Shown piece by piece: positions 4,997 through 31,334 of a DNA stretch of 64,000 bases (its first letter is position 1; each line of letters opens with the position of its first letter). The notes beneath the pieces are model-generated. The model ran no database searches, was not told the origin of the DNA, and saw nothing but the letters and a program-made list of their open reading frames with translations. Source of the DNA: Planctomycetota bacterium (GTDB lineage: Bacteria > Planctomycetota > MHYJ01 > JACPRB01); NCBI GenBank assembly GCA_035574235.1, contig DATLZA010000102.1:27219-91218 (forward strand). The letters run 5' to 3'. Made by a program: the position numbers and the translations under genes.

Positions 4997-5165
4997 GTAG
5001 GGAAGGACGGTCGGCGGCCACGGATTCTCCGGATGTTTCGCGGGCGTAACGGTGTCACCGTGGGGTAACATGGGGAGGGGGAGGTCTCCGAAGGGGAAGG
5101 GGGTGGTACGCGTTTTGCTCATTCGGGGAAGGGCGGCGGAAATGGCTTTTGCGGGGAGGGGTTCT

Positions 5166-5171
5166 TATAAT
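5166..5171 (+). promoter_or_regulatory. -10 box TATAAT for the pseudopilin operon
   Basis: gttcTTATAATcggagtttatcgggcggcgcgATG; divergent from the 4981 gene. Confidence 0.35.
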
Positions 5172-5192
5172 CGGAGTTTATCGGGCGGCGCG

Positions 5193-5810
5193 ATGAAGGG
5201 GGATCTTATGGGCTTGAAGCGCTCCGGGTTCACGCTGGTTGAGCTTCTCATCGTCATCGTCATCATCGGGATCATCGCGGGGCTCGTCCTGCCGGCGATC
5301 TTCAAGGCCATGTGCGCGGCCCGCGCGGGGAGCGCGGAAACTCTGATCAGCCAGCTCAGCCAGGCGATCAAGGCCTACGAGTTCGATAACGCCGTCTATC
5401 CTCCCGGCCGCGGCACGGGGAGCAAGGAGCTGGCCTACCATCTTCAGAAGAAGGGCGCCAAAGGCTCGGGCTATTTCGAGCTCAAGGGGCACCTCAACGA
5501 GGCGGGAGACATCATCAACCCCGTCTGGCCGGACGGAGAGCCGCCGAGCAATGTGCTGCACTACCGGAACAACGTGATGACTCCCGCGCAGGCGGCTCCT
5601 CCGACGCCCCAAGGGCCGGGAGCCAAGAAGGCCCCCGCCAAGCCCTCGCCTCAGCCGGCCGCGAAGCCCACCGCTCCGGGCGCACCTCCCGCGCCGCCGC
5701 CGGGGCAGCCCCCCATCTACCACAAGAATTCGTTCGACCTCTGGTGCGCCGGCTGCGACTTCTCGCCCGACAAGCCGGCCACGGTCTGGAGCATCAATAA
5801 CTGGGAATAG
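5193..5810 (+). CDS. prepilin-type N-terminal cleavage/methylation domain protein (GspG-like pseudopilin) with Pro/Ala-rich tail
   Basis: MKGDLMGLKRSG|FTLVELLIVIVIIGIIAGL prepilin leader plus hydrophobic helix with Glu at +5; C-terminal PAPKPSPQP low-complexity region. Confidence 0.75.
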   Translation: MKGDLMGLKRSGFTLVELLIVIVIIGIIAGLVLPAIFKAMCAARAGSAETLISQLSQAIKAYEFDNAVYPPGRGTGSKELAYHLQKKGAKGSGYFELKGHLNEAGDIINPVWPDGEPPSNVLHYRNNVMTPAQAAPPTPQGPGAKKAPAKPSPQPAAKPTAPGAPPAPPPGQPPIYHKNSFDLWCAGCDFSPDKPATVWSINNWE

Positions 5811-5850
5811 ATCCGTTCGCCGAGGGAAAGGACACGGAGGAGGAAGCCGG

Positions 5851-6384
5851 ATGGCCCGGTCGTCGCGGGGATTCACCCTCGTCGAGATGCTCGTGGTGAT
5901 TGCGATCATCGTTATCCTGGTCGCCTTTCTCGCCGTGTGGATCGTGGGCACCGCCGAGCGGGGCATGTACGTCAAGGCCCATGCGATCGTCAAGATGCTC
6001 GACCAGGGGTGCCGGACCTATAAGAAGGACTTCGGCGTCTATCCGCCCAACGACAAGGGGGATTCGCGGTGCCTGCACTTCTACCTGGGGCGGGAGCGGT
6101 GGATCGAAACCCACAAACCCGACCAGGGGCCGGCCATTCGCGTCAAGCGTCCCCCCATCCTGGAATTCCCCGCGGACATGCTGGCCCAGGAGACGGGCGT
6201 GCCCGATCCGAACAAGCCGTCCCCCGTTGTCGACCCGTGGAGGAACCCGATCCGGTACCTCAATCCCGGGCGGTACAATAAAACGTTCGTGGACCTCTGG
6301 TCCGCGGGAAAAAACGGCACGGACGAGCTTAATCCCGAATCCCCGGATTTCGACGACGTGACCAACTGGTCGAAGGACTTCTGA
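5851..6384 (+). CDS. type II secretion GspG-like pseudopilin
   Basis: MARSSRG|FTLVEMLVVIAII; DPWRNPIRY and LWSAGKNG resemble the GspG DPWGNPY / SLGADG motifs. Confidence 0.8.
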   Translation: MARSSRGFTLVEMLVVIAIIVILVAFLAVWIVGTAERGMYVKAHAIVKMLDQGCRTYKKDFGVYPPNDKGDSRCLHFYLGRERWIETHKPDQGPAIRVKRPPILEFPADMLAQETGVPDPNKPSPVVDPWRNPIRYLNPGRYNKTFVDLWSAGKNGTDELNPESPDFDDVTNWSKDF

Positions 6385-6974
6385 TGAGAAACGCCATGCG
6401 GCGGCGCGGGGGCTTCACGCTGTTCGAGATGCTCGTCGTCATCATCATCATCACGATCCTGGCGGGATCGTCGGTGATGCTGATGAACGTCTTTTTCCGC
6501 GGCCAGGGCATCCGTCAGGGGGCGGCGATCGTCAGCCAGGTCGTCGCCCAGGCCAAGCAGCAGGCCGCCCGGACCCATGGGGTGGTCTTTCTCGTCTTCT
6601 CGCCGCCCGGCGAGGACGCGTGGCTGGAGATCCATACGGACGCCAACGACGACGGCATCTACCAGGGAGATCAGAAACTGGGCACGCAAGATCCGGATCC
6701 GGTGGACGGCCCCCGCGTGGACCTGCCGAAAGCCGTCGTCTTCGAATACGCGCCCGTGTGGATCGGATTCGCTCCTTCCGGCTACATGACCTTCAGCGCC
6801 GGGTTTGCGGAGATCCAGGCGTCCATGTTCGACGCCGTCATGGCCGGATCCAATCCGCGTGCGGTCGGGGACGTCGTGCTTCGCCAGCAGAATCGGCGGA
6901 TGTACATGTGCCTGGACCTGGACCGGGCCAGCGGAAGGGTCCGGCGCTCCCACTTCCTCAACCAGGAGGAATAG
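6384..6974 (+). CDS. prepilin-type pseudopilin (minor pilin, GspH-like)
   Basis: MRNAMRRRGG|FTLFEMLVVIIIITILAG; start overlaps the previous stop (TGATG). Confidence 0.75.
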   Translation: MRNAMRRRGGFTLFEMLVVIIIITILAGSSVMLMNVFFRGQGIRQGAAIVSQVVAQAKQQAARTHGVVFLVFSPPGEDAWLEIHTDANDDGIYQGDQKLGTQDPDPVDGPRVDLPKAVVFEYAPVWIGFAPSGYMTFSAGFAEIQASMFDAVMAGSNPRAVGDVVLRQQNRRMYMCLDLDRASGRVRRSHFLNQEE

Positions 6975-6977
6975 CCC

Positions 6978-7697
6978 ATGATCGCCCGCCGCTCCCGACG
7001 TCGCGACGGCCTGACGCTCATCGAGATCCTGCTGGCCCTCATCGTGATGGTGCTCGGCTTCTGCGGGATCCTGGCGCTTTTCCCTCCGGCGCTCCAATCC
7101 TCGCGCGAATCGATGGAGGCCACCAACGCGGCCATCCTCGGGGAATCGATCGCGCACGCCCTGACGACGTCCCTGCAATTCGCGACATTCAACGCGTCCA
7201 GCCAGCAGTACGAGGCGATCCTGACGCACGACCTCAAGTCCGGCGCCGTCAGCAACCGGTACCGGTTCGCCCTTCCCAAACTGGCGCCCCCCGGCGACCC
7301 CATGGGGGGGTGGCGACACTACCCGAGCAAGGTGAACCCCCCGTCCCCCGACCTCGGCGCGCCGATGACGGCAAGCTGGGCCCCCGAGGAGGACGACCGC
7401 CTCTTCACCCTCGACGGCGACCCGTGGCTCAAGGAAACCGTCCGCCGCGTGCACGAGATCAACGACGCGACCGATCCCTACAGCCAGTTCGCCTTTTCGT
7501 TCCAGGCGCGCAAGTCGGACCATCTGGCCTATCTGCGCGTCCGCGTCAATCCGGACACGGGCCGCCCGTACACCAACGAGGAAATCGACAAGCAGAGCAT
7601 GCTGTACGAGTTCCGCATCCACATCTTCCGCGTGACGCCCGCGGGGGACGCCCGCAAGCTGATCGCCACGATCGCCCATAAGATCGCCCTCAAATAG
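6978..7697 (+). CDS. prepilin-type pseudopilin (minor pilin, GspI-like)
   Basis: MIARRSRRRDG|LTLIEILLALIVMVLG. Confidence 0.7.
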   Translation: MIARRSRRRDGLTLIEILLALIVMVLGFCGILALFPPALQSSRESMEATNAAILGESIAHALTTSLQFATFNASSQQYEAILTHDLKSGAVSNRYRFALPKLAPPGDPMGGWRHYPSKVNPPSPDLGAPMTASWAPEEDDRLFTLDGDPWLKETVRRVHEINDATDPYSQFAFSFQARKSDHLAYLRVRVNPDTGRPYTNEEIDKQSMLYEFRIHIFRVTPAGDARKLIATIAHKIALK

Positions 7698-7707
7698 GAG
7701 GCCGCCC

Positions 7708-8598
7708 ATGCGCCCGAAGGCCGCCCCAGGCTTCACCCTGATCGAGCTTCTCATCTCCGTGGCGCTCATGGTGCTGGTGCTCGCGTCGGTGACCCTGGTT
7801 TTCTCGGGGACGACCGAGACCGTGGCCGTCCAGGGGGCGCGCATGACCGTGTACACGAACGCGCGTTACGCCATGGACGTGCTCGAGAACGATCTTCTCG
7901 GGTGCCTTCCCTTCAACCCGCCGTCGGTGGGGCCGGCCCAGGCCGCCGGACCCGGCCAGCCGCTGCAGCTTATGTCCCTCCCGCACGTTCACCAGGCGTT
8001 CTGGATGGAAAACGGCGTCCTCCGCGAGCCGGGTCAGCCTCCCGCGTACAACGTGAGCGGCGGCCACACCCACGCGGCCGGCGACCGCCTCTCCTTCCGT
8101 TCCACGACCGCCGTGGGGGACACGCTGCAGACCTGCCAGGTGACGTACGAACTCATCCCGGGGAACATGACCCTGAACGAGCAGGGGCTCGCCGTCCCGG
8201 GGGACCCCAACCGCCTCAAGACCGCCCGCACGGGCCGGGGCCTCTACACGCTCGTGCGCCGCGTGCGGGTGGCCAAGCCCGAAAGCCCCAACACCTTCAG
8301 CGAATTCGCCGTGATCAAGGACCGCGTCTCCGGGCGCGCCGTCAAGGTCCTCGACCAGGACCTCTGCCAGTACGTCGTGAGCTTCAATCTCGAGTACTAC
8401 GCGAGCAACCAGCTCTTCTCGCAGCTCGATCCCACGCCCTTCCCGAGCAGCGATCCGCTGGGCGACGGCAAGGGGGTCAACGACACGACCACGCCTTTCC
8501 GCGTCCCTTCGATCCGGGCCACGCTCGTGATCGTCGAAGACGTGGGCGAGCGCCAGGAGCGCACGATTCAGCGCGTCTTCCGGATTCCACAGGGGTAG
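7708..8598 (+). CDS. prepilin-type pseudopilin (minor pilin, GspJ-like)
   Basis: MRPKAAPG|FTLIELLISVALMVLVL. Confidence 0.7.
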   Translation: MRPKAAPGFTLIELLISVALMVLVLASVTLVFSGTTETVAVQGARMTVYTNARYAMDVLENDLLGCLPFNPPSVGPAQAAGPGQPLQLMSLPHVHQAFWMENGVLREPGQPPAYNVSGGHTHAAGDRLSFRSTTAVGDTLQTCQVTYELIPGNMTLNEQGLAVPGDPNRLKTARTGRGLYTLVRRVRVAKPESPNTFSEFAVIKDRVSGRAVKVLDQDLCQYVVSFNLEYYASNQLFSQLDPTPFPSSDPLGDGKGVNDTTTPFRVPSIRATLVIVEDVGERQERTIQRVFRIPQG

Positions 8599-8623
8599 AC
8601 CCTTCCGCGCGGCGCGGTATACT
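8596..8623 (+). promoter_or_regulatory. sigma70-like promoter TAGACC-N16-TATACT ending 6 nt before the lpxH ATG (leaderless)
   Basis: ggggTAGACCcttccgcgcggcgcggTATACTgcccgcATG. Confidence 0.4.
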
Positions 8624-8629
8624 GCCCGC

Positions 8630-9343
8630 ATGGCGCGCACGCTCTTCGTGAGCGATGTTCACCTGCGTCCGGGAGACCCCGGCGCCAACGCTTCCTTTCT
8701 CCGGTTCCTGGCGCAGGAATGCGAGGCGCTGTACATCGTCGGGGACCTCTTCGACTATTGGATCGGGCCCAAGCATCTCGAATTTCCGGACTACCGCCCC
8801 GAGCTCGAGGCGCTGCGCCGCGCGGCGGGCCGGACGCGGGTGTGCCTCGTGCCGGGCAATCGGGATTTTCTGGTGGACGCGCGTTTCGAGCGGGCGACCG
8901 GGATCGAGGTCCTCGGGGAGGAGGTCCGCCTGGACCTGGGAGGCCGGCGCGTGGCTCTGGCGCATGGAGATGCGCTCTACAACACCAATCCCAAGTATTC
9001 CGCGTACCGCGCGCTCATGCGCTCGCGCCCGGTGGGGGACCTCTGGCGGGCGGTGCCGGGGATCGTGGCCCGAAGGCTGGCGCGCGGGTACCGGCGCGTT
9101 TCGCCCCTGACGACGCCGGCCAAGGCCTGGGGCCCCGAAGGCCTGCTCGAGCGCGCCCGGCCCGTCTTCCGCGGCGGCGCGGATGTGCTCATCTGCGGGC
9201 ACATCCATCAGCCGCGCCATCTGACCGCGGAGGTGGACGGCCGGCGGCGCGAGCTTTTTGTCCTGGGCGACTGGTGCGGGGGCACGCAGGACTACGTGGA
9301 GCACGACGGCGGCGAATTCCGGATGCGCCGCTGGGAGCGCTGA
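8630..9343 (+). CDS. lpxH: UDP-2,3-diacylglucosamine diphosphatase
   Basis: MARTLFVSDVHL...GDLFDYWIG...GNRD...GHIH metallophosphatase motifs and overall LpxH-like sequence. Confidence 0.8.
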   Translation: MARTLFVSDVHLRPGDPGANASFLRFLAQECEALYIVGDLFDYWIGPKHLEFPDYRPELEALRRAAGRTRVCLVPGNRDFLVDARFERATGIEVLGEEVRLDLGGRRVALAHGDALYNTNPKYSAYRALMRSRPVGDLWRAVPGIVARRLARGYRRVSPLTTPAKAWGPEGLLERARPVFRGGADVLICGHIHQPRHLTAEVDGRRRELFVLGDWCGGTQDYVEHDGGEFRMRRWER

Positions 9344-9346
9344 CGC

Positions 9347-9538
9347 TCAGGGCCGCTCGAATTCCAGGCCGCAGCGCCGGCACAGGTGCCGCGGCGGCCG
9401 CCCGCGCTCGGCCGGGGGACGCGCCGTGACGAAGCCCTGGAATCGGCACATGGGACAGCGTCCGGAGTCCGGCGCGGCCGGAGGCTCTGAAGGCCAGGGA
9501 AGAATGGTCCGGGCGGGGCGCACGCCGCGGCGCCTCAC
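9347..9538 (-). CDS. small Zn-ribbon protein (CxxC...CxxC)
   Basis: 63 aa with CPMCRF and CRRCG pairs; start overlaps the upstream gene stop by 4 nt (translational coupling). Confidence 0.35.
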   Translation of the reverse strand: MRRRGVRPARTILPWPSEPPAAPDSGRCPMCRFQGFVTARPPAERGRPPRHLCRRCGLEFERP

Positions 9539-10158
9539 CGCAGGAGCTCCGAAAGGATTTCGCGCACGCCGCCGGGATCCACCTGGACGGCCACGCGGCG
9601 CAGGCGTCGCGCGGGATCGGTTTCGACGGTCCGGACGTCTCCGGCCAGGAGGCGGCCGGCGACGCGCGCGCGGACGTGTCGGGGGGCTCCCTCGAAGTGC
9701 CGGTGAAACTCGTCGGATTCTCCCGCCAGGACGAGCGTCTCGGGCGAAAGCTCCGCGAGCCGGCAGGCGATCGTGAGGCCCTCGCCCGCCTCGAGCTCCA
9801 CGGGGAGCTTCCGCACGCGCTCCTGGCGGAGGCGCTCGAGCCGCCGGAACGTGTCGGCGAGCTTGAGCGGAGAAAGCGGCGCGGGCAGGACCGCCGCCAC
9901 CTGGCCCGCCGCGGGGACGGCCACGGGCACGCCGGCCAGGACCACGGGCACGCCGGGCATCTCCTGTTCGAGAAAGCGCGCCAGGGTCTCGGGCGCTCCG
10001 GCGGGTCCGAAGACGACCGCGTCAAAGAGCGCGGTGCGGAGTTTGAGCGCCGCGTCGTCGGCGTCGGCGGCCAGCGACACGCGGTGGCCGAGCGAGCGAA
10101 GCAGCGCGCGCACGAGATGCGCCACGGAGGCGGGCGCGTCGTAGACGAGAACGTTCAT
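9535..10158 (-). CDS. pseudo-receiver (REC-like lacking phospho-Asp) / PilZ-like domain protein
   Basis: Start MNVLVYD at 10158 with GGGAGG Shine-Dalgarno. The N-terminus is CheY-like but has G at the phosphoacceptor position (FDAVVFG). C-terminus carries RQERVR and ELSPETL motifs reminiscent of PilZ (RxxxR / DxSxxG); this is weak. Confidence 0.45.
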   Translation of the reverse strand: MNVLVYDAPASVAHLVRALLRSLGHRVSLAADADDAALKLRTALFDAVVFGPAGAPETLARFLEQEMPGVPVVLAGVPVAVPAAGQVAAVLPAPLSPLKLADTFRRLERLRQERVRKLPVELEAGEGLTIACRLAELSPETLVLAGESDEFHRHFEGAPRHVRARVAGRLLAGDVRTVETDPARRLRRVAVQVDPGGVREILSELLR

Positions 10159-10986: not shown

Positions 10987-11244
10987 ATGGAGGCAGAGGA
11001 AGGGAAGGACTCGTTCGAGATCGTCCGCGACTTCCTTCTGAGCCTGGGCGAGCGCAAGCCCGGGAGGGACGAGGTGCAGGCGATCGCGCCGGCGCTGCGG
11101 GACATTTACGAGCGCCTGATGAGGGTGCGGGCCGTGGCGCCGTCGGTGGACCTGAGCGACCGGCTGTGGGAGCTCATGGAGATGGTGGGGCTCAAGGCGC
11201 GGCCGGCGCGACGGACGGCGTTCTTTCGGGCCGCGAGCCTGTAG
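10987..11244 (+). CDS. hypothetical small protein
   Basis: 85 aa, preceded by GAGAGGGGGAAGG Shine-Dalgarno-like motif; sits between mraZ and rsmH; non-biased composition. Confidence 0.35.
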   Translation: MEAEEGKDSFEIVRDFLLSLGERKPGRDEVQAIAPALRDIYERLMRVRAVAPSVDLSDRLWELMEMVGLKARPARRTAFFRAASL

Positions 11245-11343
11245 GCCGCGGACGCGGGGCGGCCCGGCGAGGCGAGGGAAAGTGGGTGAGGGCAGGAGGG
11301 ATGTATCGGAGAGAGGGAGGAGGAGCCCTTCGCGCATGGATCC

Positions 11344-12231
11344 TTGCCTCGCCGGGTCGCCGCCGTGCACGAACCTGTTCTTTCGGATGAGGTGATCGGG
11401 CTCCTGCGGATCCGCCCGGGCGGACTGTACGTGGACGCCACGCTCGGTCTGGGCGGACACGCGGAGCGGATCGTGGCGCTCGGGGGGCGCGTCCTCGGCA
11501 TCGAGTGGGATGACGAGGCCGCGGCGCGCGCGGCGGAGCGGCTGGGGCCGGCCGCCGAAGTCGTTCGCGACTCGTTCGCGAACCTCCCGTCGATCCTTGA
11601 AAGTCGGAACGTGAGCGTCGTCGACGGCATCCTGGCCGATCTGGGCGTGTCGTCGTTGCAGTTGGACACCGCTTCGAGGGGGTTCAGCTTCCTCCGGGAA
11701 GGTCCTCTGGACATGCGCATGTCGCCGCGGATCCGGAGGACGGCGGCGGACCTGCTCCGGGAGCTTGGAGAGAGGGACCTGGAGCGGATCCTGCGGGAGT
11801 ACGGCGAGGAGCCGCGCGCCCGCCGAATCGCGGCCGCCCTGGTGCAGGAGAGGGGGAAACCGGGGAGCGACATCCTGGCATCGACCCGGGCGCTGGGGGA
11901 GTTCGTGGCGCGCCTGACCCGCCGGCGCGGACGAATTCATCCGGCGACCCGGGTCTTCCAGGCCCTCCGGATCGCCGTCAACGACGAGCTGGAAAACCTC
12001 AAGAAGTTCCTGGCGGTTTTCGATAAGTATCTGGGAGCCGGGGCGCGGTGCTGCGTGATCGCGTTCCACTCCCTGGAGGACCGCCTGGTGAAGCGGGCCT
12101 TCCGCGAGAAGGAGAAGGAAGGGCTGCGGATCGTCACCCGCAAGCCCCTCCGGCCCTCGCGCGAGGAGGTCCGGCGCAACCCGCGCGCCCGGAGCGCGCG
12201 GCTGCGCGCGATCGAGCGGCCCGGAGCGTGA
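11344..12231 (+). CDS. rsmH: 16S rRNA (cytosine1402-N4)-methyltransferase
   Basis: HEPVLSDEVIGLL, DATLGLGGH, DLGVSSLQLD, RIAVNDEL motifs. The start is TTG 11344 or GTG 11365. Confidence 0.85.
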   Translation: MPRRVAAVHEPVLSDEVIGLLRIRPGGLYVDATLGLGGHAERIVALGGRVLGIEWDDEAAARAAERLGPAAEVVRDSFANLPSILESRNVSVVDGILADLGVSSLQLDTASRGFSFLREGPLDMRMSPRIRRTAADLLRELGERDLERILREYGEEPRARRIAAALVQERGKPGSDILASTRALGEFVARLTRRRGRIHPATRVFQALRIAVNDELENLKKFLAVFDKYLGAGARCCVIAFHSLEDRLVKRAFREKEKEGLRIVTRKPLRPSREEVRRNPRARSARLRAIERPGA

Positions 12232-12341
12232 GGCCGCCGCAACGAGGCGTCTCCTTGCGGCAGCCTCAGGCTTCGGCCCTGGAGAGAAGGGTCTAGGGTC
12301 CGCGGACCGCCGGAGGGCGGGTCCGGGGACGAGGGGGAAAC

Positions 12342-12611
12342 GTGAAGGTCGTCCGCGCGGCGCTGGCCGCCGTCATCGTGCTGAACCTGGCGCTCCTGGC
12401 CGCGTTCGCGCCCCTGCGCGCGACGCTTCTGCGCTACGAGACGGCCCGGCAACGGCGCGAACTGGCGTCCCTGGCCCTGGAGAACCGCGCCCTCCTGCAC
12501 CAGGCGGCTCTGGCCCGCCGGCCCGACCGGCTCGCCGCCCGCGCCGCCGCCCTGGGCGTGGAGCTGCGCGCCGCGGACCTCGAGGCCGTCGTCAAAGGGA
12601 GGCGGCGATGA
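12342..12611 (+). CDS. ftsL: cell division protein FtsL-like (single TM + coiled coil)
   Basis: GTG start after GAGGGGGAAAC; TM VVRAALAAVIVLNLALLAAF then a Leu-rich coiled coil; positioned between rsmH and ftsI. Confidence 0.6.
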   Translation: MKVVRAALAAVIVLNLALLAAFAPLRATLLRYETARQRRELASLALENRALLHQAALARRPDRLAARAAALGVELRAADLEAVVKGRRR

Positions 12612-14347
12612 GCGCCTCCCCCGGCCCTGGAGAGAGGAGGCCCGCCCCGGTCGACGCCGGCGCCCGCCGCCGCGCCGGCGCCGTCGCCGTCCTGGCCGCG
12701 GCGCTTTTCCTTTTCCTCCTCGGACGCCTCTTTTCCATCCAGGTCGTCGGCCACGAAACCTATCGGGGAAAGCGCGAAGCCCAGACCCGCGGCACCGTCG
12801 TCGTGGAAACCCCCGCCGGAACCCTCCGCGACGCCCGCGGGCAGATCCTGGCCGTTTCCGTCCCCGTCGAGTCGGTGTGGGCCGATCCCTCCGCCCTGGA
12901 CGACCGCCCCGCGGCCGCGCGACTCCTGGCGCAGGCGCTCGGAATGCGCCCCGAGACGGTCCTCGAACGCCTCTCGCGCGAAGAACGACGGTTCGTGTGG
13001 ATCAAGCGCAAGATCGCGCCCCAGGAGGCCGACCGCGTCCGCAAGCTCCTCAAGGAGCCGCCGTTTGCGTCCAGGGACCGCCGCGCGGCGCCGGCCCTGG
13101 GGCTGGCCACCGAGTTCGCCCGCCGCTACCCGCAGGGACCCGTCCTCTCCCATATCCTGGGTTTCCGCAGCGAGGACGAGGAGTCCCACGAAGGTCTCGA
13201 ACGCGCCCTGGCCCGCGTGCTCGAAGGCGGCCGGCGCGCCGCCTCCGTGGAGGTCGACGGCCTGCGGCGGCCTCTGGGCGGACCCTCCCTCGAAGCGCCC
13301 CCGGACGCCGTCCTCACGATCGACCTCCTCCTCCAGCGGATCGTCGAGGAGGAATTGGACGCGGCCTGCGCGGAACACCGTCCGGACTGGGCTTCAGTCG
13401 TGGCGATGGATCCCCGGACGGGCGCGATCCTCGCGCTGGCCAACCGGCCGGGGTTCGACCCCAACGATCCGGCCGCGGCGCCCGGCGCGGCGCGGCGCAA
13501 CCGGGCCGTGGTGGATCCCTACGAGCCCGGTTCCACCCTCAAGCCGTTCCTGGCGGCGTACGCGCTCGACCTGGGCCTGGTGACGCCCGAGACGACGTTC
13601 GACTGCGAAAACGGCCTGTGGAAGCACGGGCCGCGCCTCCTGCATGATCATCATCCGTACGGAAGGCTCACCCTCGCCGAGGTCATCAAGTACTCCTCCA
13701 ACATCGGCGCGGCCAAGCTCGGGGCGCTGACGTTGGGGCGCGCCCGCCTTCACGAGTGCATGGCCCGGTGGGGCTTCGGCTCCCGGACGGGCGTGGACCT
13801 TCCGGCCGAGGACCAGGGGCGTCTCTTCCCGCTTTCGCGCTGGAGCGTCTATTCGGACACCTCCGTCCCCATGGGACACGAGATCGCGGTGACTCCTCTT
13901 CAGCTCGTGACGGCCATGAGCGCCGTGGCCTCGGGAGGGACGCTGCACCGGCCGTTCGTCGTGCGCCGCGTCGTGGGGGCCGACGGCGCGGTCCTCCACG
14001 AGGGGCATCCCGTGGCGGCGCGGCGCGTGATCGGTTCCCGCGCGGCCGCTCAGATGGTGGAGATCCTGGCCGACACGGTCCGCGACGGCACCGGGAAAAA
14101 GGCCCAGGTGCCCGGCGTGACGGTCGCCGGAAAGACGGGAACCACCCAGAAGGTGGACCCGCAGACGAAGCGCTACACCCGCGAACGGTACATCAGCTCC
14201 TTCGTCGGATTCGCGCCGGCGGAGGAGCCGCGCATCTGCATCGCGGTCGTGATCGACGAGCCCAAGGGGGGTGCGTACTACGGCGGGGCGGTCGCCGCCC
14301 CCGTGGTGGGACGGATCCTCCAGCGGGGGCTCGTCCACGTGCCGTAA
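12608..14347 (+). CDS. ftsI: peptidoglycan D,D-transpeptidase FtsI (PBP3)
   Basis: N-terminal TM, PBP dimerisation domain, and transpeptidase motifs STLKP, SSN (KYSSNIG) and KTGT. Confidence 0.9.
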   Translation: MSASPGPGERRPAPVDAGARRRAGAVAVLAAALFLFLLGRLFSIQVVGHETYRGKREAQTRGTVVVETPAGTLRDARGQILAVSVPVESVWADPSALDDRPAAARLLAQALGMRPETVLERLSREERRFVWIKRKIAPQEADRVRKLLKEPPFASRDRRAAPALGLATEFARRYPQGPVLSHILGFRSEDEESHEGLERALARVLEGGRRAASVEVDGLRRPLGGPSLEAPPDAVLTIDLLLQRIVEEELDAACAEHRPDWASVVAMDPRTGAILALANRPGFDPNDPAAAPGAARRNRAVVDPYEPGSTLKPFLAAYALDLGLVTPETTFDCENGLWKHGPRLLHDHHPYGRLTLAEVIKYSSNIGAAKLGALTLGRARLHECMARWGFGSRTGVDLPAEDQGRLFPLSRWSVYSDTSVPMGHEIAVTPLQLVTAMSAVASGGTLHRPFVVRRVVGADGAVLHEGHPVAARRVIGSRAAAQMVEILADTVRDGTGKKAQVPGVTVAGKTGTTQKVDPQTKRYTRERYISSFVGFAPAEEPRICIAVVIDEPKGGAYYGGAVAAPVVGRILQRGLVHVP

Positions 14348-14511
14348 CGCGGGGCGCGCGCGGGAGCGTTCCCGGGGCCGGGGCCCCGGGCTTGAGGAGA
14401 GGGGAAGGCATGAGCGAAGAACCTCGGCGGTCGATTCCGGCGTGGCTGCGCCACATTTATCTCTATACCGCCCGGATCCAGTATCCGCGGCGCCGAGAGG
14501 GGGGAAGGAAA

Positions 14512-15981
14512 ATGGGCGTCCGGTTGAGCGCGCTTCTCGAGGGGCTGGCCGGCGAGTGCCTCCACTTCCGGGAGGCCGAAATCCACGACGTCACCTGCGA
14601 TTCGCGCCAGGTCCAGCCGGGAACTCTTTTTGTGGCCGTGCCCGGCACGCGGCAGGACGGAGCCGCTTTCGTGGACGAGGCGATCCGCCGCGGGGCGGTC
14701 GCCATCGTCGCCGAAAAGTCCGTCCCGAGCTGCCCCGTTCCCGTCCTCGTCGTTCCGGAGGCCCGCGCGGCCCTGGCCGATCTGGCGGCGCGGTTCCACG
14801 GACACCCCACGGCGCGCCTGAACGTCGTGGGCGTCACGGGCACCAACGGCAAGACCACGACGACCTTCCTGGTCCGTTCGATCCTCGAGGCCGCCGGCCA
14901 GAAGACGGGGCTCCTGGGGACGATCCAGCACGCGATCGGCTCGCGCGTCCTGCCGAGCGACAATACGACGCCGGGGGCGGACACGCTCCAGCGTCACTTC
15001 GCCGAGATGGTCCGGGCGGGCTGCGGCGCCGCGGCGATGGAGGTCTCCTCCCACGCGCTCGACCAGGGGCGCGTCCGCGGCGTGCGCTTCGCGGCCGCGA
15101 TCTTCACGAACCTCACCCGCGATCACCTGGACTACCATCCGACGTTCGAGCACTACCGCGACGCCAAGGGGAAGCTCTTCGAGATGCTCTCCCCGAAATC
15201 GATCGCGGCGCTCAACGCGGACGATCCGGTCTCCGAGCTTTACGCCGCGCGCACGCCGGCGCGCGTCCGGACCTACGCGCTCAAGCGTCCGGCGGACGTC
15301 ACGGCCGCCGTGGAGCTCGTCACGTTCCACGGGACGCGGCTCGTCCTGCGGGCCGGCGGGGAGGAAGTCCGCGTCCACACGCGGCTCATCGGAACCCACA
15401 ACGTCTACAACATCCTGGGCGCGGCGGCCGCCGCGTGGGGCATGGGCTACGACCTCGAGGTCATCAAGGCCGGGGTGGAGAACCTCGCCGCGGTTCCCGG
15501 CCGCCTGGAGCCCGTGGACGCCGGCCAGGACTTCGCCGTGCTCGTGGATTACGCGCACACGGACGACGCCCTCCGCAACGTTCTCGGGTGCCTGCGCCCG
15601 CTCGTCCGGGGCCGCCTGATCGTCGTCTTCGGCTGCGGCGGCGACCGGGACCGGGGCAAGCGGCCGAAGATGGGCCGCGTCGCCGCGGAACTGGCCGACC
15701 AGGTGATCCTGACGAGCGACAATCCGCGCTCGGAGAGTCCCACGGCGATCCTGTCGGACATCCTGGCGGGAGTGCCCGACCGGGAGCGCCGGAAGGTCCT
15801 CCTGGAGCCGGACCGCCGGGACGCCATCAAAATGGCCGTTTCCCTGGCGCGCAAGGACGACGCCGTGCTCATCGCCGGCAAGGGGCACGAAACGGTGCAG
15901 ATTTTCCGGGACCGGACGGCGGGCTTCGACGACCGCCTCGTGGCGCGCGAGGTGCTCGGCGAAGTCGTCGGAAGCCGGTAA
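14512..15981 (+). CDS. murE: UDP-N-acetylmuramoyl-L-alanyl-D-glutamate--2,6-diaminopimelate ligase
   Basis: MGVRLSALLEG..., GVTGTNGKTTT, DNPR motifs. An alternative start at 14410 would add 34 aa. Confidence 0.85.
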   Translation: MGVRLSALLEGLAGECLHFREAEIHDVTCDSRQVQPGTLFVAVPGTRQDGAAFVDEAIRRGAVAIVAEKSVPSCPVPVLVVPEARAALADLAARFHGHPTARLNVVGVTGTNGKTTTTFLVRSILEAAGQKTGLLGTIQHAIGSRVLPSDNTTPGADTLQRHFAEMVRAGCGAAAMEVSSHALDQGRVRGVRFAAAIFTNLTRDHLDYHPTFEHYRDAKGKLFEMLSPKSIAALNADDPVSELYAARTPARVRTYALKRPADVTAAVELVTFHGTRLVLRAGGEEVRVHTRLIGTHNVYNILGAAAAAWGMGYDLEVIKAGVENLAAVPGRLEPVDAGQDFAVLVDYAHTDDALRNVLGCLRPLVRGRLIVVFGCGGDRDRGKRPKMGRVAAELADQVILTSDNPRSESPTAILSDILAGVPDRERRKVLLEPDRRDAIKMAVSLARKDDAVLIAGKGHETVQIFRDRTAGFDDRLVAREVLGEVVGSR

Positions 15982-16194
15982 GCGGCGCCCCGGCGTCGCG
16001 CGAGAGAGGGGGAAGGATGCTGTCGGATCTCCATATCTACGGCGGGTTTCACCTCTCGCCCTACCTGGCCCTTCGGGTGTTCGAGGTGGTGGGCGAAATC
16101 GTCGAGCGCAACGTGGACCGGTCGTTGTCGCACCTGGACGACGACCGGTGCGAAGTGTGCCGCGCGGCGGCCGCGGCGGGAGAGGGGGCGGACG

Positions 16195-17556
16195 ATGAAT
16201 CTGGCGCGGATCGCGCGGGTCATCCGCGGGCGGCCTGACCGGCCTCTCGAGGAGCGGACGGTTTCCGGCGTTTCGACGGACACGCGGACGCTGCGGCCGG
16301 GGGACCTGTTCTTCGCGCTGCGCGGGGCGCGGTTCGACGCGCACGACTTCGTGGCCGAGGCGTTCCGCCGGGGGGCGGCCGCCGCGGTCGTGGAGCGCGA
16401 TCCGGGGGCCGCGCCCGGTCCCCTGGTCTTCGTCGCCGACGCGTGGAGGGCGCTCGGGGACCTGGCCGCCGCGTGGCGCATGGCGCTTCCGGCGCGGGTG
16501 ATCGCCGTGGCCGGCTCTAACGGCAAGACCACCACCAAGGACATGATCGCCCATGTCCTGGGGCGCGACCGGCGCGTGGTGAAGGCGCAGGGGAGCTTCA
16601 ACAATCTCGTCGGAGTGCCGCTGACGATCTTCCAGGCGGACGCGCGGACCGAGGCGGCGGTGCTCGAGATCGGCACCAACCGTCCGGGCGAGGTGGCCCG
16701 CCTCGGGGCGATCGCCCGGCCGGACGTGGCGGTGATCGTGAGCGTGGGCGCGGAGCACCTGGAAGGCCTGGGCTCGATCGACGGCGTGGCGGACGAGGAG
16801 ACGTCGCTTCTGGGATTTCTGCGCGCGGGCGGTTTCGCCGTGGTTCACGACGACCCGCGGATCCGGGCGCGGGTGCGGCTGCCGGCGGCGAAGACGGCGA
16901 CCTTCGGCTTCGGCCAGGACGCGGACTTCCGGCCGGAGCGCGTGGAGCGCGAGCCGGGGGGCATGAGGTTCCGGCTGCGGGGGGTGGAGTTCCGGCTGGG
17001 CCTTCTCGGGGAGTGGAACGTGCAGAACGCGCTGGCCGCGGCGGCGGTGGCGGCCCACGAGGGCGTGTCCCTCGAGGAGTGCGCGCGGCGGCTGGCGGAC
17101 TTCCGCGGGCCGAAGATGAGGATGGAGCGCCTAGAACTGGCGGGGGTGACGATTCTGAACGACGCGTACAACTCGAATCCCGAATCGGCCTCCCGGGCGG
17201 TGCGGGAGTTCGCGCGGCTGGAGACGGGCGGCCGGCGGATCGCGGTGATGGGGGACATGAAGGAGCTGGGCGCGGCTTCGGCGGAGTATCACCGGGCGCT
17301 GGGGCGGCTTCTGGCGGAAAGCGGCGTGGATGTCGTGATCGGCGTGGGCCCGGAGTGCCGCGCGCTTCTGGAGGCGGTCGGGGAAGCGGCGCAGACCCGC
17401 GGGTTCGCGCGCGTGGAGGAGCTGCGGGCGGCTCTCGGCGAGATCGTCCGCCCCGGGGACGCGGTGCTTCTGAAAGGCTCGCGGTCCGTGGGTCTGGAGC
17501 AGGTGGTCAAGTGGATCGGGGAGGGAGCGGCGGCGCCGGTGGGCTCCGGCCGGTGA
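16195..17556 (+). CDS. murF: UDP-N-acetylmuramoyl-tripeptide--D-alanyl-D-alanine ligase
   Basis: VSTDTRTLRPGDLFFAL, AVAGSNGKTTTKDM, Mur ligase C-terminal domain. Confidence 0.9.
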   Translation: MNLARIARVIRGRPDRPLEERTVSGVSTDTRTLRPGDLFFALRGARFDAHDFVAEAFRRGAAAAVVERDPGAAPGPLVFVADAWRALGDLAAAWRMALPARVIAVAGSNGKTTTKDMIAHVLGRDRRVVKAQGSFNNLVGVPLTIFQADARTEAAVLEIGTNRPGEVARLGAIARPDVAVIVSVGAEHLEGLGSIDGVADEETSLLGFLRAGGFAVVHDDPRIRARVRLPAAKTATFGFGQDADFRPERVEREPGGMRFRLRGVEFRLGLLGEWNVQNALAAAAVAAHEGVSLEECARRLADFRGPKMRMERLELAGVTILNDAYNSNPESASRAVREFARLETGGRRIAVMGDMKELGAASAEYHRALGRLLAESGVDVVIGVGPECRALLEAVGEAAQTRGFARVEELRAALGEIVRPGDAVLLKGSRSVGLEQVVKWIGEGAAAPVGSGR

Positions 17557-17578
17557 CCGCCGACGCGCGAGGACGGCG

Positions 17579-18652
17579 ATGCTGCTTTGGCTTTTGGGCG
17601 AGGACTTCCGGGAAGGGATCACCCTGCGGGCGGCGATGGCGGGGATCACCGCGTTCGCGGCCTGCCTGGCGCTCGGGCCGCGCGTGATCGCCTGGCTGCG
17701 GGCCCGCAAGGTCGGGGAGCGGGTCGAAAAGGACGACTCGCGGCGGCTCGACGAGCTCATGCGGCAGAAGAAGGGGACGCCCACGATGGGCGGGGTTTTC
17801 ATCGTGGCGGCGATCCTCCTGAGCGTGGTTCTCTTCGGCAACTTCGCGAATCCCGCGCTCTGGGTCCTGGCGCTGGTTCTTGTGGGCCTGGGGGCGGTGG
17901 GGGCGGCGGACGACTACCTGAAGCTTTCCGGCCGGTCGCGCACGGGAATGCGGATGCGGACGAAGCTTCTGCTGCAGGTGGCCGTGAGCCTGGCGGCGGG
18001 ACTCGGTCTGGCGGGCGCGCTGCGGGCGACGGATCCCCAGACGGCGACGAAGCTTTTCACGCCCTTCGGGATCTCGTGGGACCTCGGGGTCTTCTATCCG
18101 GCGTTCGTGGCGCTGGTGCTCGTGGCCACGACGAACGCCGTCAACATCACCGACGGGCTGGACGGCCTGGCGGGAGGGTGTCTGGGGATCTCCACCTTCG
18201 CGTACGCGGTGATCGCGTACATCGTGGGGCGCGTGGACTTCAGCGCGTACCTGGAGCTTCCGTACGTCAAGGCGAGCGCGGAGCTGCCGGTGTTCTGCAC
18301 TGCGATGCTCGGCGCGGTCCTGGGATTCCTCTGGTTCAACAGCCACCCCGCGCAGGTGTTCATGGGAGATTCGGGGTCCCTGCCTCTGGGGGGCGCGCTC
18401 GGGCTGGTGGCGTGCGCGACCAAGCAGGAGCTGCTGCTCTTCCTCGTGGGCGGGGTCTTCGTGATCGAAGCCTTCTCCTCGCTGCTTCAGATCCTGAGCT
18501 ACAAGGCGACCGGACGGCGGATTTTCCTCATCGCGCCGCTCCACCACCATTTCCAGTTCCGGGGCCTTCCGGAGACGAAGATCACGCTGCGCTTCTGGAT
18601 CGTGGCGGCGGTGATGGCGGTCTCCAGCCTGGCCCTTCTCAAGATCCGATGA
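17579..18652 (+). CDS. mraY: phospho-N-acetylmuramoyl-pentapeptide-transferase
   Basis: Ten-TM pattern, KKGTPTMGG, NAVNITDGLDGLA, PAQVFMGDSGS motifs. Confidence 0.92.
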   Translation: MLLWLLGEDFREGITLRAAMAGITAFAACLALGPRVIAWLRARKVGERVEKDDSRRLDELMRQKKGTPTMGGVFIVAAILLSVVLFGNFANPALWVLALVLVGLGAVGAADDYLKLSGRSRTGMRMRTKLLLQVAVSLAAGLGLAGALRATDPQTATKLFTPFGISWDLGVFYPAFVALVLVATTNAVNITDGLDGLAGGCLGISTFAYAVIAYIVGRVDFSAYLELPYVKASAELPVFCTAMLGAVLGFLWFNSHPAQVFMGDSGSLPLGGALGLVACATKQELLLFLVGGVFVIEAFSSLLQILSYKATGRRIFLIAPLHHHFQFRGLPETKITLRFWIVAAVMAVSSLALLKIR

Positions 18653-28117: not shown

Positions 28118-29359
28118 TCAGGAGGGGCGCAGGCGGATCGTCGTCGTCCCGGTTCCGGTCGCGGTTCCCGGCTGGAAGAGTCCGGCGAGCGTCCGGAGGA
28201 TCGAGTCCCGGGTGAAGGGCTTCACGACGTAGGCGCGGGCGCCCTTGCGGACGGCGGCGAGGGCGGCTTCCTTGGAGGCGTCCCCGGAGAGGACGACCAC
28301 CGGGGAGGTCGTGTTCTCGCACAGCCAGGAGAGGAACTGGTGCTCGTCCGACGACGCCAGCCCCATGTCCAGGATCAGGGCGTCGACCTTCCGGTTTTCG
28401 CTGAGGAGCGCCATGGCCTGGGCGGCCTGTTCCTCGAGGACCTGGTAGCCGGCCTCGCGCAGAAGGGACGCGAGCGCCTGGCGGTACTTCAGCATGTCGC
28501 CCAGCAGGAGGATGGACCGCCGCTGTCCGGGAGGCACGGCGTAGGGAGAGCGGGGCGGGGCGCCCGGGCGCTGGGCGGGGAGTTTCGCGCTCGAATCGGC
28601 CTTGAGGTGAACGACGGTCGCGCCCTCGCGGTCCATGATCTTCACGTATCCCCGCGTGGCCAGGACGTACATGGCCCGGAGGGCCTCGAAGCGCGGGTAG
28701 AGCGACAGCCGCAGAACTTCCGAGACGCCGACGCGGCCGTTGATCTGGCTGTAGACGGCGCTCAGGAGGTCCGGATTCAGCCCGAGCTGATCGGGCGCGA
28801 ACGGCTTGGTGGTTCGGATGGGGATCATCGTCTCGTCGCGGATGACCTTGTGGATGACGGCGAGCTCGTCGGCCCTGCGGGCGGCCTCGAGCGCGACCGA
28901 GGTGGGGGAAGCGTCCACGGTGACGTCCGCGAGCGGAAAATCCTTGGGCTTGGGGGGCGGGGGGCCTTCCTTGAACTCGAAGCGGGCGGACGTCCAGGAG
29001 AAAAGATCGTAGATCTCCTCCTGCGCCTGCTCGCGGAGGGCGGCTTCGATGTCGGCCTTGGTGACGAGTCCCTGGCGGCTGACGAGCTCTCCGAGCCGGC
29101 GGCCCGTCTTCTGCTGTTCGAGGAGGAGCTGATCGAGCTGGGCGCGGGTGATCTTGCGGGTGCGGATGAGGATCTCGCCGAGGGAGCTCGTCTTCTTGCT
29201 GCTGGTGGAGATGAGCTGCATGCCGTCGGGGGAGATGTAGATCACCTTCTGGAGAGGGCCCTGGGTGAGGGTGAGGGTGCCGGAGATCTGGGCGTTGTAG
29301 AGGTGCTGGAGCAGATCGGCGAAGCTGAGGATCGAAACGCTGCCCTGGAGGTCGCCCAT
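28118..29359 (-). CDS. DUF4388 (PATAN-like) domain + CheY-like receiver response regulator (PatA-like architecture)
   Basis: N-terminus MGDLQGSVSILSFADLLQHLYNAQISGTLTL (DUF4388). C-terminal REC with phospho-Asp (ILDMGL), Ser (VVLSG) and Lys (VVKPF) present. Confidence 0.7.
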   Translation of the reverse strand: MGDLQGSVSILSFADLLQHLYNAQISGTLTLTQGPLQKVIYISPDGMQLISTSSKKTSSLGEILIRTRKITRAQLDQLLLEQQKTGRRLGELVSRQGLVTKADIEAALREQAQEEIYDLFSWTSARFEFKEGPPPPKPKDFPLADVTVDASPTSVALEAARRADELAVIHKVIRDETMIPIRTTKPFAPDQLGLNPDLLSAVYSQINGRVGVSEVLRLSLYPRFEALRAMYVLATRGYVKIMDREGATVVHLKADSSAKLPAQRPGAPPRSPYAVPPGQRRSILLLGDMLKYRQALASLLREAGYQVLEEQAAQAMALLSENRKVDALILDMGLASSDEHQFLSWLCENTTSPVVVLSGDASKEAALAAVRKGARAYVVKPFTRDSILRTLAGLFQPGTATGTGTTTIRLRPS

Positions 29360-29385
29360 GAGCGGTCCATTCTCCGGCAATCCGT

Positions 29386-30549
29386 TCAGTCCTTCAAGAC
29401 GTTTGCGATCCGCTCGACGAGAAGGTCCTCCCGGAAGGGCTTCACGAGCACATACCGCGCGCCGCACTGAAGGGCGTTGGCGATGGCCTGCTTGCTCGTG
29501 TTGCCCGACAGCACGATGAACGGCGTGTTCGTGCGTTCGCGCAGCCGGGCGCAGAGTTTCAGGCCGTCCTCGGTTTCCAGGGGGACGTCCAGAACCACGA
29601 CGTCCCCGGGGGACCGGTCGACGAGGTCGCCTTCCACGTCGGCGATGCGCCCTTCGATCGCGTCGTAGCCGGTGGAGCGCAGGCAGAGGGCCAGGGCCGA
29701 GCGGAAGGTCGGAAGGTCGCTGAGGATGAGCACCGTGCGTCCGCGGGCGGGCGCGCGCTCCTCGGCGGGCGTGGCGGGCCGGCGCAGGACGGTGTGGGGG
29801 GGCGTGAGGCCCTCGCCCCGGTCCCGGATCTTGATCACGCCGCGCTGGGCCAGGCCGTACAGGGTGCGCAGCACGGTGAACTTGGGGTAGAGCGACTCCT
29901 CGATGATGTGGGCCACCGTCCGCTCGCCGTCCACGAGCGGCAGGATGTCCTCGATGGCGTTGCGGTCGAGGCTGGGATCGTCCAGGGACGCCGGAAGCTC
30001 CAGGCGCTCGGCGATGAGGCGGGTGTCGGGAATCACGGACTGGATGCGGGCGAGCTCGTCCACGCGGCGGGCCGCCTCGATCATGATCGACATGACGTTG
30101 GCGTCCAGGAGGACGGACGCCAGCGGACCCTGGTCGGAGGGAGCCGCGCCGTCGCGGCTCTCCACGAACTGGAATCGCGCCTGCGTCCAGGTGAACAGAT
30201 CGTAGATCTCCTCGGCCACCTGCTCGCGGAGCGCCGAGTCGATGACGGCGCGGTCGAGGATCCCCCGGCGGGAGACGATCTCCCCGAGGGGCGTGCCCGT
30301 GCGGCGCTGCTCGGCCAGCAGCTCGTCGAGCTGGTCGCGGGTCAGCCGGCCGGCGCGAAGAAGGATTTCTCCCAGGGGGTTGGTGCGCCGGGCTCCGCTG
30401 ACCAGCCGGATGCCGTGATCGAGGAACTGGATGACCTTCTTCTGGTCCTCCTGCTCCAGGGTCAGGTAGCCCCGGCAATGGTTCATCGAGAGCATCTGGA
30501 GGAGGTTGGAGATGCCGAGGACGTCAACGTCTCCGCGGATTTCTCCCAT
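29386..30549 (-). CDS. DUF4388 (PATAN-like) + receiver response regulator, paralog 2
   Basis: MGEIRGDVDVLGISNLLQMLSMNHCRGYLTL plus C-terminal REC (VVLDVPLE, IVLSG, VLVKPF). 26-nt spacer to paralog 1. Confidence 0.7.
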   Translation of the reverse strand: MGEIRGDVDVLGISNLLQMLSMNHCRGYLTLEQEDQKKVIQFLDHGIRLVSGARRTNPLGEILLRAGRLTRDQLDELLAEQRRTGTPLGEIVSRRGILDRAVIDSALREQVAEEIYDLFTWTQARFQFVESRDGAAPSDQGPLASVLLDANVMSIMIEAARRVDELARIQSVIPDTRLIAERLELPASLDDPSLDRNAIEDILPLVDGERTVAHIIEESLYPKFTVLRTLYGLAQRGVIKIRDRGEGLTPPHTVLRRPATPAEERAPARGRTVLILSDLPTFRSALALCLRSTGYDAIEGRIADVEGDLVDRSPGDVVVLDVPLETEDGLKLCARLRERTNTPFIVLSGNTSKQAIANALQCGARYVLVKPFREDLLVERIANVLKD

Positions 30550-30554
30550 GGCGT

Positions 30555-31334
30555 TTACCCCGCCCGCTCGGAGGCGCCGGCGACGAGGATCGCCGCGCCC
30601 TTGCGGTCGCGGGCCTTGAGCTGGCCCAGGGCCAGGAGCCTGTAGATCGCGCGCATCGTGGCGAATCTCGGGTAGGGCGAGATCTGCGCCACCTCGCGCA
30701 GGGTCCGTTTTCCGTCCACCAGGGGAAACAGCCCCCGGGCGGCCTCGAGGTCTTCGCCCAGCGCCGAGACCGGGATGGACGTGGCGGCCCGCTGGAGGAC
30801 CATGTCCTCGTCGTGCAGGATCGAACGGATGCGCATGAGCTCGTCGTGCCGGCGGGCCGCTTCCATGAGAAGGGAGGTGACGTTCACGTCGAACGAGAGC
30901 CCGGCCAGCGGATCGGTGGCTTCCGCCCGCGCGGAGGGTCCCTCCTGGAACTCGAACGCCGCCCCTTCCCACATGAACATGTCGAAAATTTCTTCCTCGA
31001 TCTGCTCGCGGAGCGCCTCTTCTACGTCTTTCCGGGTGGCCTTGCCGGCGCGGATCGCGAGCTGGCCGAGCTTGAGGCCCTCGAGTTTCTGGCGGCGAAG
31101 GAGCGCCTCCAGATCCGCGCGGCTGATCCGGCGTTTGCGCAGGAGAATCCGTCCCACCCGGTTGATTCGCTTCATGGTCGAGGAAAGCAGGCGGATCCCG
31201 CGGGGACCGAAATGAATCGCCTTGCGCTCCATCTCCTTGTAGAGCGTGAGCGTGCCCTCCCTCCGGTTGAAGGACAGAAGCTGAAGGAGGTTCCCCAGGC
31301 CCAGGATGTCCACGTCGCCCTTGAGGATGCCCAT
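30555..31334 (-). CDS. DUF4388 (PATAN-like) domain protein, paralog 3 (no receiver)
   Basis: MGILKGDVDILGLGNLLQLLSFNRREGTLTL; 5-nt gap to paralog 2 and 3-nt gap after purN. Confidence 0.65.
   Translation of the reverse strand: MGILKGDVDILGLGNLLQLLSFNRREGTLTLYKEMERKAIHFGPRGIRLLSSTMKRINRVGRILLRKRRISRADLEALLRRQKLEGLKLGQLAIRAGKATRKDVEEALREQIEEEIFDMFMWEGAAFEFQEGPSARAEATDPLAGLSFDVNVTSLLMEAARRHDELMRIRSILHDEDMVLQRAATSIPVSALGEDLEAARGLFPLVDGKRTLREVAQISPYPRFATMRAIYRLLALGQLKARDRKGAAILVAGASERAG

Follow-up and report, generated by a model that had tools for sequence, protein, structure and literature searches.

Two arrangements of filament-subunit genes are known among the described type IV filament systems: in the survey of Denise et al., type IVa pili (T4aP) usually have a multilocus organization in which the pilin genes lie apart, whereas type II secretion systems (T2SS) keep their pilin genes inside one locus (PMC6668835). 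Experimental work on the type IV filament machines of Planctomycetota is scarce, although an operon composed of gspE-pilT-gspE-gspF and genes of unknown function is scored as essential in Planctopirus limnophila (PMC10632474), and our literature search for planctomycete pseudopilins or minor pilins found hardly anything specific. Here, we analyze a cassette of five genes, named P1 to P5, at positions 5193-8598 (+) of a 64-kb stretch of contig DATLZA010000102.1 from an uncultured member of Planctomycetota; this whole stretch, whose G+C content is about 69%, is hereafter called the window. The cassette is probably a single operon for the filament and priming components of a type IV filament machine (of the type IV pilus [T4P] or T2SS type), with the motor encoded elsewhere.

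The cassette can be compared with several described systems. Relative to the GspG-H-I-J-K sets of T2SS (Xcp in Pseudomonas aeruginosa, Gsp in enterotoxigenic Escherichia coli, and Eps in Vibrio), it has two G-like paralogues and no GspK, its fourth product (P4) is twice the size of GspI and contains an extra, highly conserved subdomain at approximately residues 100 to 206, its fifth product (P5) exceeds GspJ in length by about 100 residues, none of the products reaches an NCBIfam equivalog cutoff, and the genes are not situated inside a gspC-O locus. The minor pilin operons of T4aP (fimU-pilVWXY1E in P. aeruginosa and pilHIJKX in Neisseria) are similar in forming a separate operon away from pilBCD and pilMNOPQ, in their H-I-J order, and in the predicted role in fiber priming; moreover, the N terminus of P4 matches the PilV profile, and NCBI labels two relatives of the cassette proteins as “PilW family” and “PilV family.” Compared with the PilA1-PilA3/ComZ set of Thermus thermophilus (TTHA1218 and TTHA1219), the cassette lacks a large ComZ-like tip protein, and sequence similarity is confined to the N terminus. 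The Verru_Chthon A to D families (TIGR02596, TIGR02598, TIGR02599, and TIGR02600) likewise constitute a multigene prepilin-type cassette in bacteria of the PVC (Planctomycetes-Verrucomicrobia-Chlamydiae) group, and P3, P4, and P5 match proteins D, B, and C, respectively, at the N terminus; membership in these families was rejected, given scores of 26.7 versus 70 (P3), 13.0 versus 51.4 (P4), and 26.2 versus 256.5 (P5) and the lack of an equivalent of protein A.

Five prepilin genes under purifying selection

All five genes are read from the forward strand, as follows: P1 (5193-5810; 205 aa), P2 (5851-6384; 177 aa), P3 (6384-6974; 196 aa), P4 (6978-7697; 239 aa), and P5 (7708-8598; 296 aa). A first-pass annotation of this DNA had described them as consecutive prepilin-type genes, each with a basic leader, a Gly, an F/LTLxE motif, and a hydrophobic helix, and each of the five open reading frames (ORFs) indeed displays the elements of a class III signal (a short basic leader, Gly, a hydrophobic residue at +1, Glu at +5, and about 20 hydrophobic residues). 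The N termini, with a hyphen after the Gly, read MKGDLMGLKRSG-FTLVELL (P1, for which cleavage is predicted after G12), MARSSRG-FTLVEML (P2), MRNAMRRRGG-FTLFEML (P3), MIARRSRRRDG-LTLIEIL (P4), and MRPKAAPG-FTLIELL (P5), and a hydrophobic helix follows in every case. A six-frame translation of the 64 kb contains the pattern G[FLMIYV][TS][LM]xE[LIVMT][LMIV] exactly five times, always at the starts of P1 to P5 (shuffled translations: mean, 0.01; maximum, 1), and both Gly-1 and Glu+5 are retained in P1 to P5 and in every aligned orthologue. The TIGR02532 model, which the first-pass annotation had named as a test that could refute its reading of these motifs, is passed by four of the five proteins (cutoff, 16.3; P1, 29.5; P2, 29.4; P3, 24.7; and P5, 18.9), with P4, which has Leu at +1, falling narrowly below at 14.0. 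The Pfam N_methyl model (PF07963) is similarly passed by P1 (31.2 bits), P2 (32.1 bits), P3, and P5, with P4 scoring 16.1 versus a cutoff of 21.2, and it is passed by the proteins at the P4 position of three other loci (L017, where Phe is at +1, L045, and L033).

Comparison of the window with three contigs of the same species from other metagenomes revealed 24 codon differences within P1 to P5, all of them synonymous. The five genes are real and under purifying selection; because of this 24:0 ratio of synonymous to nonsynonymous changes, along with deep conservation, we reject the possibility that they are relics or chance ORFs. The genes are tightly spaced at three of their junctions (a 1-nt overlap [ATGA] between P2 and P3, 3 nt between P3 and P4, and 10 nt between P4 and P5), as had been reported for the cassette as a whole, but P1 and P2 are separated by 40 nt. 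A sequence scan detected no terminator-like site with a good stem within the cassette.

The P5 family comprises 190 matches and the P4 family 194, at 42 to 70% identity, all from metagenomes or Planctomycetota metagenome-assembled genomes (MAGs). A profile search of 1.84 billion representatives returned 57 clusters at an E value of ≤1e-30, and the 20 clusters sampled from these consist entirely of Planctomycetota MAG or unnamed metagenome sequences. We recovered about 50 related loci, 11 of which span both sides of the cassette; in all 11, the genes are arranged as hisS, a hypothetical gene, a phosphoesterase gene (-), a membrane protein gene (-), P1 to P5, lpxH, a REC-like gene (-), mraZ, and the rest of the division and cell wall (dcw) cluster, and this block is visible in every locus with enough flanking sequence, down to about 40% P5 identity. 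A genome of this lineage, GCA_974447425.1, has the cassette on contig CDDDJS010000125.1. The order P1-P2-P3-P4-P5 is unchanged in these 11 loci and in a second, distant lineage of Planctomycetia MAGs (L017, L056, and L057; 24 to 30% P5 identity), in which a collinear five-gene cassette has quite different neighbors. We conclude that the cassette is ancient, has been inherited vertically as a unit, and has no functional tie to its hisS, lpxH, and dcw neighbors; a role linked to lpxH or the dcw cluster was rejected on the grounds that the second lineage keeps the cassette next to unrelated genes. A search with the distant P5-like protein of L017, aimed at cultured Planctomycetia, yielded only seven relatives, all of them uncultured.

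Subunit assignments

Two of the five products are GspG-like. P2, with DPWRNPIRYLNPG and the DLWSAGKNGTDE C-terminal region, contains the GspG-type motifs DPWxNP...DLWS.G and passes the Pfam T2SSG model (PF08334) at 33.5 bits versus a cutoff of 21, in agreement with the DPWxNPxxY motif previously noted in the second gene (DPWRNPIRY in P2); its score against TIGR01710 is 58.0 bits, which misses the GspG equivalog cutoff of 88.85. P1 is a paralogue of P2 with the same GspG-like N-terminal region: positions 1 to 61 match TIGR01710 at 52.4 bits, missing the same cutoff, and the T2SSG score of 17.4 bits is likewise under the cutoff. It is the least conserved of the five proteins and is duplicated in tandem in L007, L062, and L091, the count of G-like genes differing among relatives, and it is a candidate for the major or a variable pilin subunit. 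Conserved Cys residues of P1 are located in helix alpha1 (KAMC) and near the C terminus (the second Cys of CAGC). The Pro/Ala-rich stretch that had been read as a long tail on the first gene proves in the alignment to be an internal, lineage-variable insert, after which comes the conserved C terminus FDLWCAGCD...NNWE; there is no insert in L009, L013, or L015, a shorter Gly-rich stretch takes its place in L007, and that of L011 is both shorter and different. An alternative P1 start, the ATG at 5208, is used in the Joint Genome Institute gene call and results in a 200-aa product.

Many relatives possess an extra gene before P1 and/or after P5 (L066, 6053-6526; L068, 4259-4711; L076, 4022-4486; L083, 2090-2551; and L079, 1027-1506). 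These extra genes combine a P1/GspG-like C-terminal domain (...FDLWC.D..G..DGINNW) with an ordinary hydrophobic N terminus that has no G-FTLxE motif, and the window contains no such additional G-like-domain gene lacking the prepilin motif.

The remaining three products resemble minor pilins. P3 is probably a GspH/FimU-like minor pilin, which we base on a weak N-terminal signal to H-family profiles, Glu+5, and the position of the gene before the I- and J-like genes. Its best partial matches are to GspH (1.2e-6), Verru_Chthon D, ComGD, a PpdA-type protein (PRK10506), and XpsH, all N terminal (the first 55 to 65 residues) and all under their cutoffs; TIGR01708 (GspH) matches only the N-terminal 53 residues, at 28.7 bits versus a cutoff of 80, and PF12019 matches none of 10 P3 orthologues. 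P4, encoded directly upstream of the J-like P5, is predicted to be a GspI/PilV-like minor pilin: its best structural match is GspI, and the top three matches are all GspI orthologues, none of them significant, with no match below an E value of 0.1 in the Foldseek search against the PDB. P5 is a predicted GspJ/PilW-like minor pilin, in that its modeled structure has the GspJ fold (a long alpha1 helix and two beta-sheets) and its best structural match is T2SS GspJ; TIGR01711 (GspJ) matches the N terminus only (17.2 bits; cutoff, 64.85). P5 further has a variable Pro/Gln/Gly-rich loop at approximately residues 66 to 96 and a near-invariant C-terminal ED.GERQERT.QK..W.P motif. When profiles of the P3, P4, and P5 families were searched against PDB sequences, the matches did not extend beyond the shared helix at the N terminus.

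The earlier description of a G-H-I-J-type pseudopilin operon detached from its core machinery is thus supported by the T2SSG domain of P2, the paralogy of P1, and the N-terminal 60 residues of P3, whose best match is the H family. The cassette presents a clean set of well-conserved candidate filament subunits (the I- and J-like families each have about 190 homologues) with assignable G, I, and J roles and no K.

Motor genes and the nature of the machine

We propose that the five prepilins would be inserted in the inner membrane by way of their hydrophobic N-terminal helices and that a PilD/GspO-type peptidase encoded elsewhere would cleave them after the conserved Gly and then N-methylate them. 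A heterodimer of the I-like P4 and the J-like P5 would form the core of the tip or priming complex, which the H-like P3 would join to the body of the fiber, itself polymerized from the GspG-like P1 and/or P2, either of which may be the major subunit. Polymerization would be driven by a GspE/PilB-type ATPase and a GspF/PilC-type platform from another locus, and the output of the machine may be an adhesion or motility fiber or, alternatively, a secretion piston.

Pfam scans were applied to about 38 of the approximately 60 called ORFs of the window, and the others (dcw genes, tRNA synthetases, etc.) were judged by eye. On this basis, T2SSE, T2SSF, secretin, and peptidase A24 domains are absent from the window ORFs, in accord with the first-pass annotation, which had reported no secretin, ATPase, or platform gene. 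Identical contigs extend the sequence in both directions, to the left (L001) into genes for polysaccharide synthesis and to the right (L058) into unrelated genes, with no T2SS or T4P gene in either extension. Motor genes are adjacent to the P1-P5 family in none of the approximately 50 family loci examined, and none lie within 10 kb of the cassette in L017, L056, or L057. This detachment is not odd because T4aP pilin loci are normally apart from motor loci (PMC6668835), so the designation “orphan” is overstated and is better taken to mean a system spread over several loci; a pilin operon apart from its motor genes is ordinary biology, and this cassette is itself uncharacterized.

Arrays of the same kind are joined to motor genes in other Planctomycetota. 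Among four loci retrieved by chance through a generic N-terminal pattern (L032, L033, L036, and L045), three have a run of N_methyl genes directly behind T2SSE (plus MshEN) and T2SSF genes; the run comprises five genes in both L045 and L033, and in L032 four can be seen up to the point where the contig stops. The motor genes of L045 specify GspE, a PilT-like ATPase, a second GspE, and GspF. When hidden Markov models of the P1 to P5 families were applied to these arrays, the best matches in L033 were, in order, P2, P2, P3, P4, and P5; genes 1, 2, 4, and 5 of L045 matched P1, P1/P2, P4, and P5; and the G, H, and J positions of L032 were matched. The P4-type signature, a Gly followed by LTL.E.L...G.L..L.LFP, was found again in L045. 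The gspE-(pilT-gspE)-gspF-pilin operons and the cassette come from the same phylum and have four to five N_methyl genes in a row in largely the same P1/P2-P3-P4-P5 order, but the pilin arrays of L045, L033, and L032 directly follow their ATPase and platform genes, which that of the window does not, and their pilins are larger (220 to 617 aa). Given these motor-linked arrays, detachment is a trait of the lineage under study and not of the phylum.

The layout of these arrays resembles that of Plim_0410-0401 in P. limnophila, which consists of genes for two “T2S protein E,” a “twitching motility protein,” and a “T2S protein” together with six hypothetical genes, with all but one of the genes in this operon scored as essential by transposon sequencing (PMC10632474). 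Homology of the cassette to Plim_0401-0406, suggested by the described gene layout alone, may be considered a lead, and the cassette could help in annotating the “hypothetical” genes of gspE-pilT-gspE-gspF operons. A bolder and rather doubtful proposal is that a gspE-pilT-gspE-gspF machine exists throughout Planctomycetota, namely the one scored as essential for growth in P. limnophila, and that the cassette represents its filament module in detached form; priming would occur without K, and the enlarged, I-like P4 would cap or license the fiber through its conserved extra subdomain in place of GspK/PilX (with or without PilY1). If true, the filament would be of the type IV kind, serve a housekeeping, envelope-related function, and have a variant architecture at its tip, which would fit both the fixed position of the cassette among hisS, lpxH, and dcw genes and the strict purifying selection on it.

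Two of the chance-retrieved loci contain giant ORFs. In L036, an ORF of 1,610 aa (5163-9995, +) is situated among the pilin genes and has a GspK-looking N terminus (MRGFALILVLVAL...) without Glu+5, and no ATPase motif was seen in this locus; in L033, an ORF of 2,233 aa (11223-17924, +) with no prepilin-like start follows the motor-linked pilin array. These are possible K-type or tip proteins, and they have no counterpart in the cassette of the window.

Several observations weigh against a filament module that works with a distant motor. ATPase, platform, secretin, and prepilin peptidase genes are absent from the window and from about 5 kb past each of its ends, and the cassette includes neither a GspK/PilX-like subunit nor a PilY1-like protein. 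The globular part of P3 has no match in Pfam or among PDB sequences, the PDB profile search having reached the N terminus only. Likeness to the motor-linked pilins is mostly limited to the N-terminal 60 to 80 residues, and within those arrays, gene 3 of L045 has only a weak match to the P3 profile (13.5 bits, which is lower than its score for P2) and the gene at the I position of L032 matched no profile. The one departure from the textbook arrangement is that K-type subunits and PilY1-like partners are consistently missing, the K-type subunit being seen as licensing assembly in current models of I-J-K initiation (PMC13533445). A K-type gene would be a further prepilin-like gene after the J gene, usually without Glu+5, but no sixth prepilin gene is present (the window has only the five motifs, and inspection by eye of the called N termini revealed no K-like sequence). 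Either a K subunit may be specified by another locus or its absence may be offset by the enlarged P4, and the cassette could also test the generality of the I-J-K licensing model of fiber initiation.

Which machine the module would serve depends on how its T2SS-like and T4aP-like features are balanced. A classical type II secretion pseudopilus, with P1 and P2 forming a short periplasmic endopilus that is primed by P3 to P5 and pushes folded exoproteins through GspD, and with no retraction ATPase or surface fiber, would account for the G-H-I-J gene order as in gsp operons, for GspG (TIGR01710 and PF08334) as the best whole-family match of P1 and P2, and for T2SS GspI and GspJ as the best structural matches of P4 and P5. 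We nonetheless judge it unlikely: the equivalog cutoffs for GspG, -H, -I, and -J are all missed by wide margins, no GspK, GspC/L/M, or secretin is encoded nearby, T2SS pseudopilin genes are normally found in the middle of a single locus (PMC6668835), and a PilT-type ATPase, which classical T2SS do not have, is encoded both in the L045 array and in the P. limnophila operon. The G-like subunits and PDB matches point toward a T2SS, whereas the detached organization, the PilV/PilW-type profile hits, and the PilT gene of the motor-linked relatives point toward a dynamic pilus, and on present evidence we incline toward a dynamic machine, either T4aP-like or hybrid, rather than a classical T2SS. It is very improbable that the cassette instead forms a competence pseudopilus for DNA uptake, comparable to ComGC-GG or the Thermus PilA1-A4/ComZ set and acting with ComEC. 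The window does have a full-length ComEC/Rec2-type gene (59100-61271, -) with DUF4131, Competence, and metallo-beta-lactamase domains, by which the organism is predicted to have an inner-membrane DNA-uptake channel, but ComEC is near universal in bacteria, and this gene is 50 kb distant; the ComG matches are N terminal only and under cutoffs, there are no comEA, dprA, or comGA/GB genes nearby, and nothing in the cassette is specific to DNA binding.

A role outside filaments, in which the class III signal serves for membrane or periplasmic targeting only, as in proteins combining N_methyl with SBP_bac_10/DUF1559, or in which the function is tied to the flanking lpxH and dcw genes, would be in line with the 41 to 100 N_methyl proteins that are scattered around the chromosome of each planctomycete genome (PMC8567305) and with the fixed placement of the cassette between hisS and lpxH/mraZ, which is seen in each of the 11 two-sided loci of its lineage. 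We find this role barely credible, as the SBP_bac_10/DUF1559 domain was detected in none of the five proteins (Pfam; E ≤ 1), the predicted folds of P4 and P5 match the tip-complex subunits I and J and not solute-binding proteins, the second lineage retains the cassette and not the neighbors, and the same kind of array is joined to gspE/gspF in other Planctomycetota. Most of the N_methyl proteins in these genomes are SBP_bac_10/DUF1559 proteins (PMC8567305), a family in which membership was rejected for P1 to P5, and the view that clusters such as this one are typical of PVC bacteria is thus only loosely backed, since most of the proteins in question are unlike these five.

Neighboring genes and other features of the window

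Upstream of the cassette are hisS, a hypothetical gene, and genes for a metallophosphoesterase (-) and a conserved membrane/coiled-coil protein (-). Downstream, lpxH (NF003743; 140.6 bits versus 134) starts 31 nt after P5 and is followed by a REC-like gene (-) and the dcw cluster (mraZ, rsmH, ftsL, a penicillin-binding protein gene, murE, murF, and mraY). The divergent gene next to P1 (4454-5122, -) encodes a protein of 222 aa with one membrane helix and a coiled-coil or helix-turn-helix-like C terminus, which has no family match except a weak one to SpiroCoCo_C; the gene is a constant neighbor of the cassette in this lineage but is not conserved beside it in the second one, and its product could be a local regulator. 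The region between this gene and P1 (5123-5192, +) contains a TATAAT hexamer at 5166-5171 and is the likely promoter region, although a consensus scan called no full -35/-10 pair there.

Further along the dcw cluster, a 73-aa ORF at 16017-16238 (+) lies between murE and murF, overlaps the start of murF, and has 45 to 63% identity to counterparts in L007, L011, L012, and L015. Three tandem paralogues at 28118-31334 (-) each have an N-terminal DUF4388 domain, and two of them also have a C-terminal response-regulator receiver domain; they were rejected as GspE-N relatives, having no MshEN or T2SSE match. At 47728-49074 (+), a protein of 448 aa has both a CsgG-like domain (PF03783; 4.5e-24) and double zinc-ribbon motifs, an unusual architecture. 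Searches of the window against Rfam at gathering thresholds returned nothing, including at a peroxiredoxin ORF of the typical 2-Cys type (AhpC/Prx; 39486-40067, +) that has an in-frame TGA (39627-39629) exactly at the position of the peroxidatic Cys. A perfect 7-bp hairpin (TCCGACA-GGT-TGTCGGA) starts about 20 nt downstream of this TGA, making the gene a candidate selenocysteine peroxiredoxin with an element resembling a bacterial selenocysteine insertion sequence.

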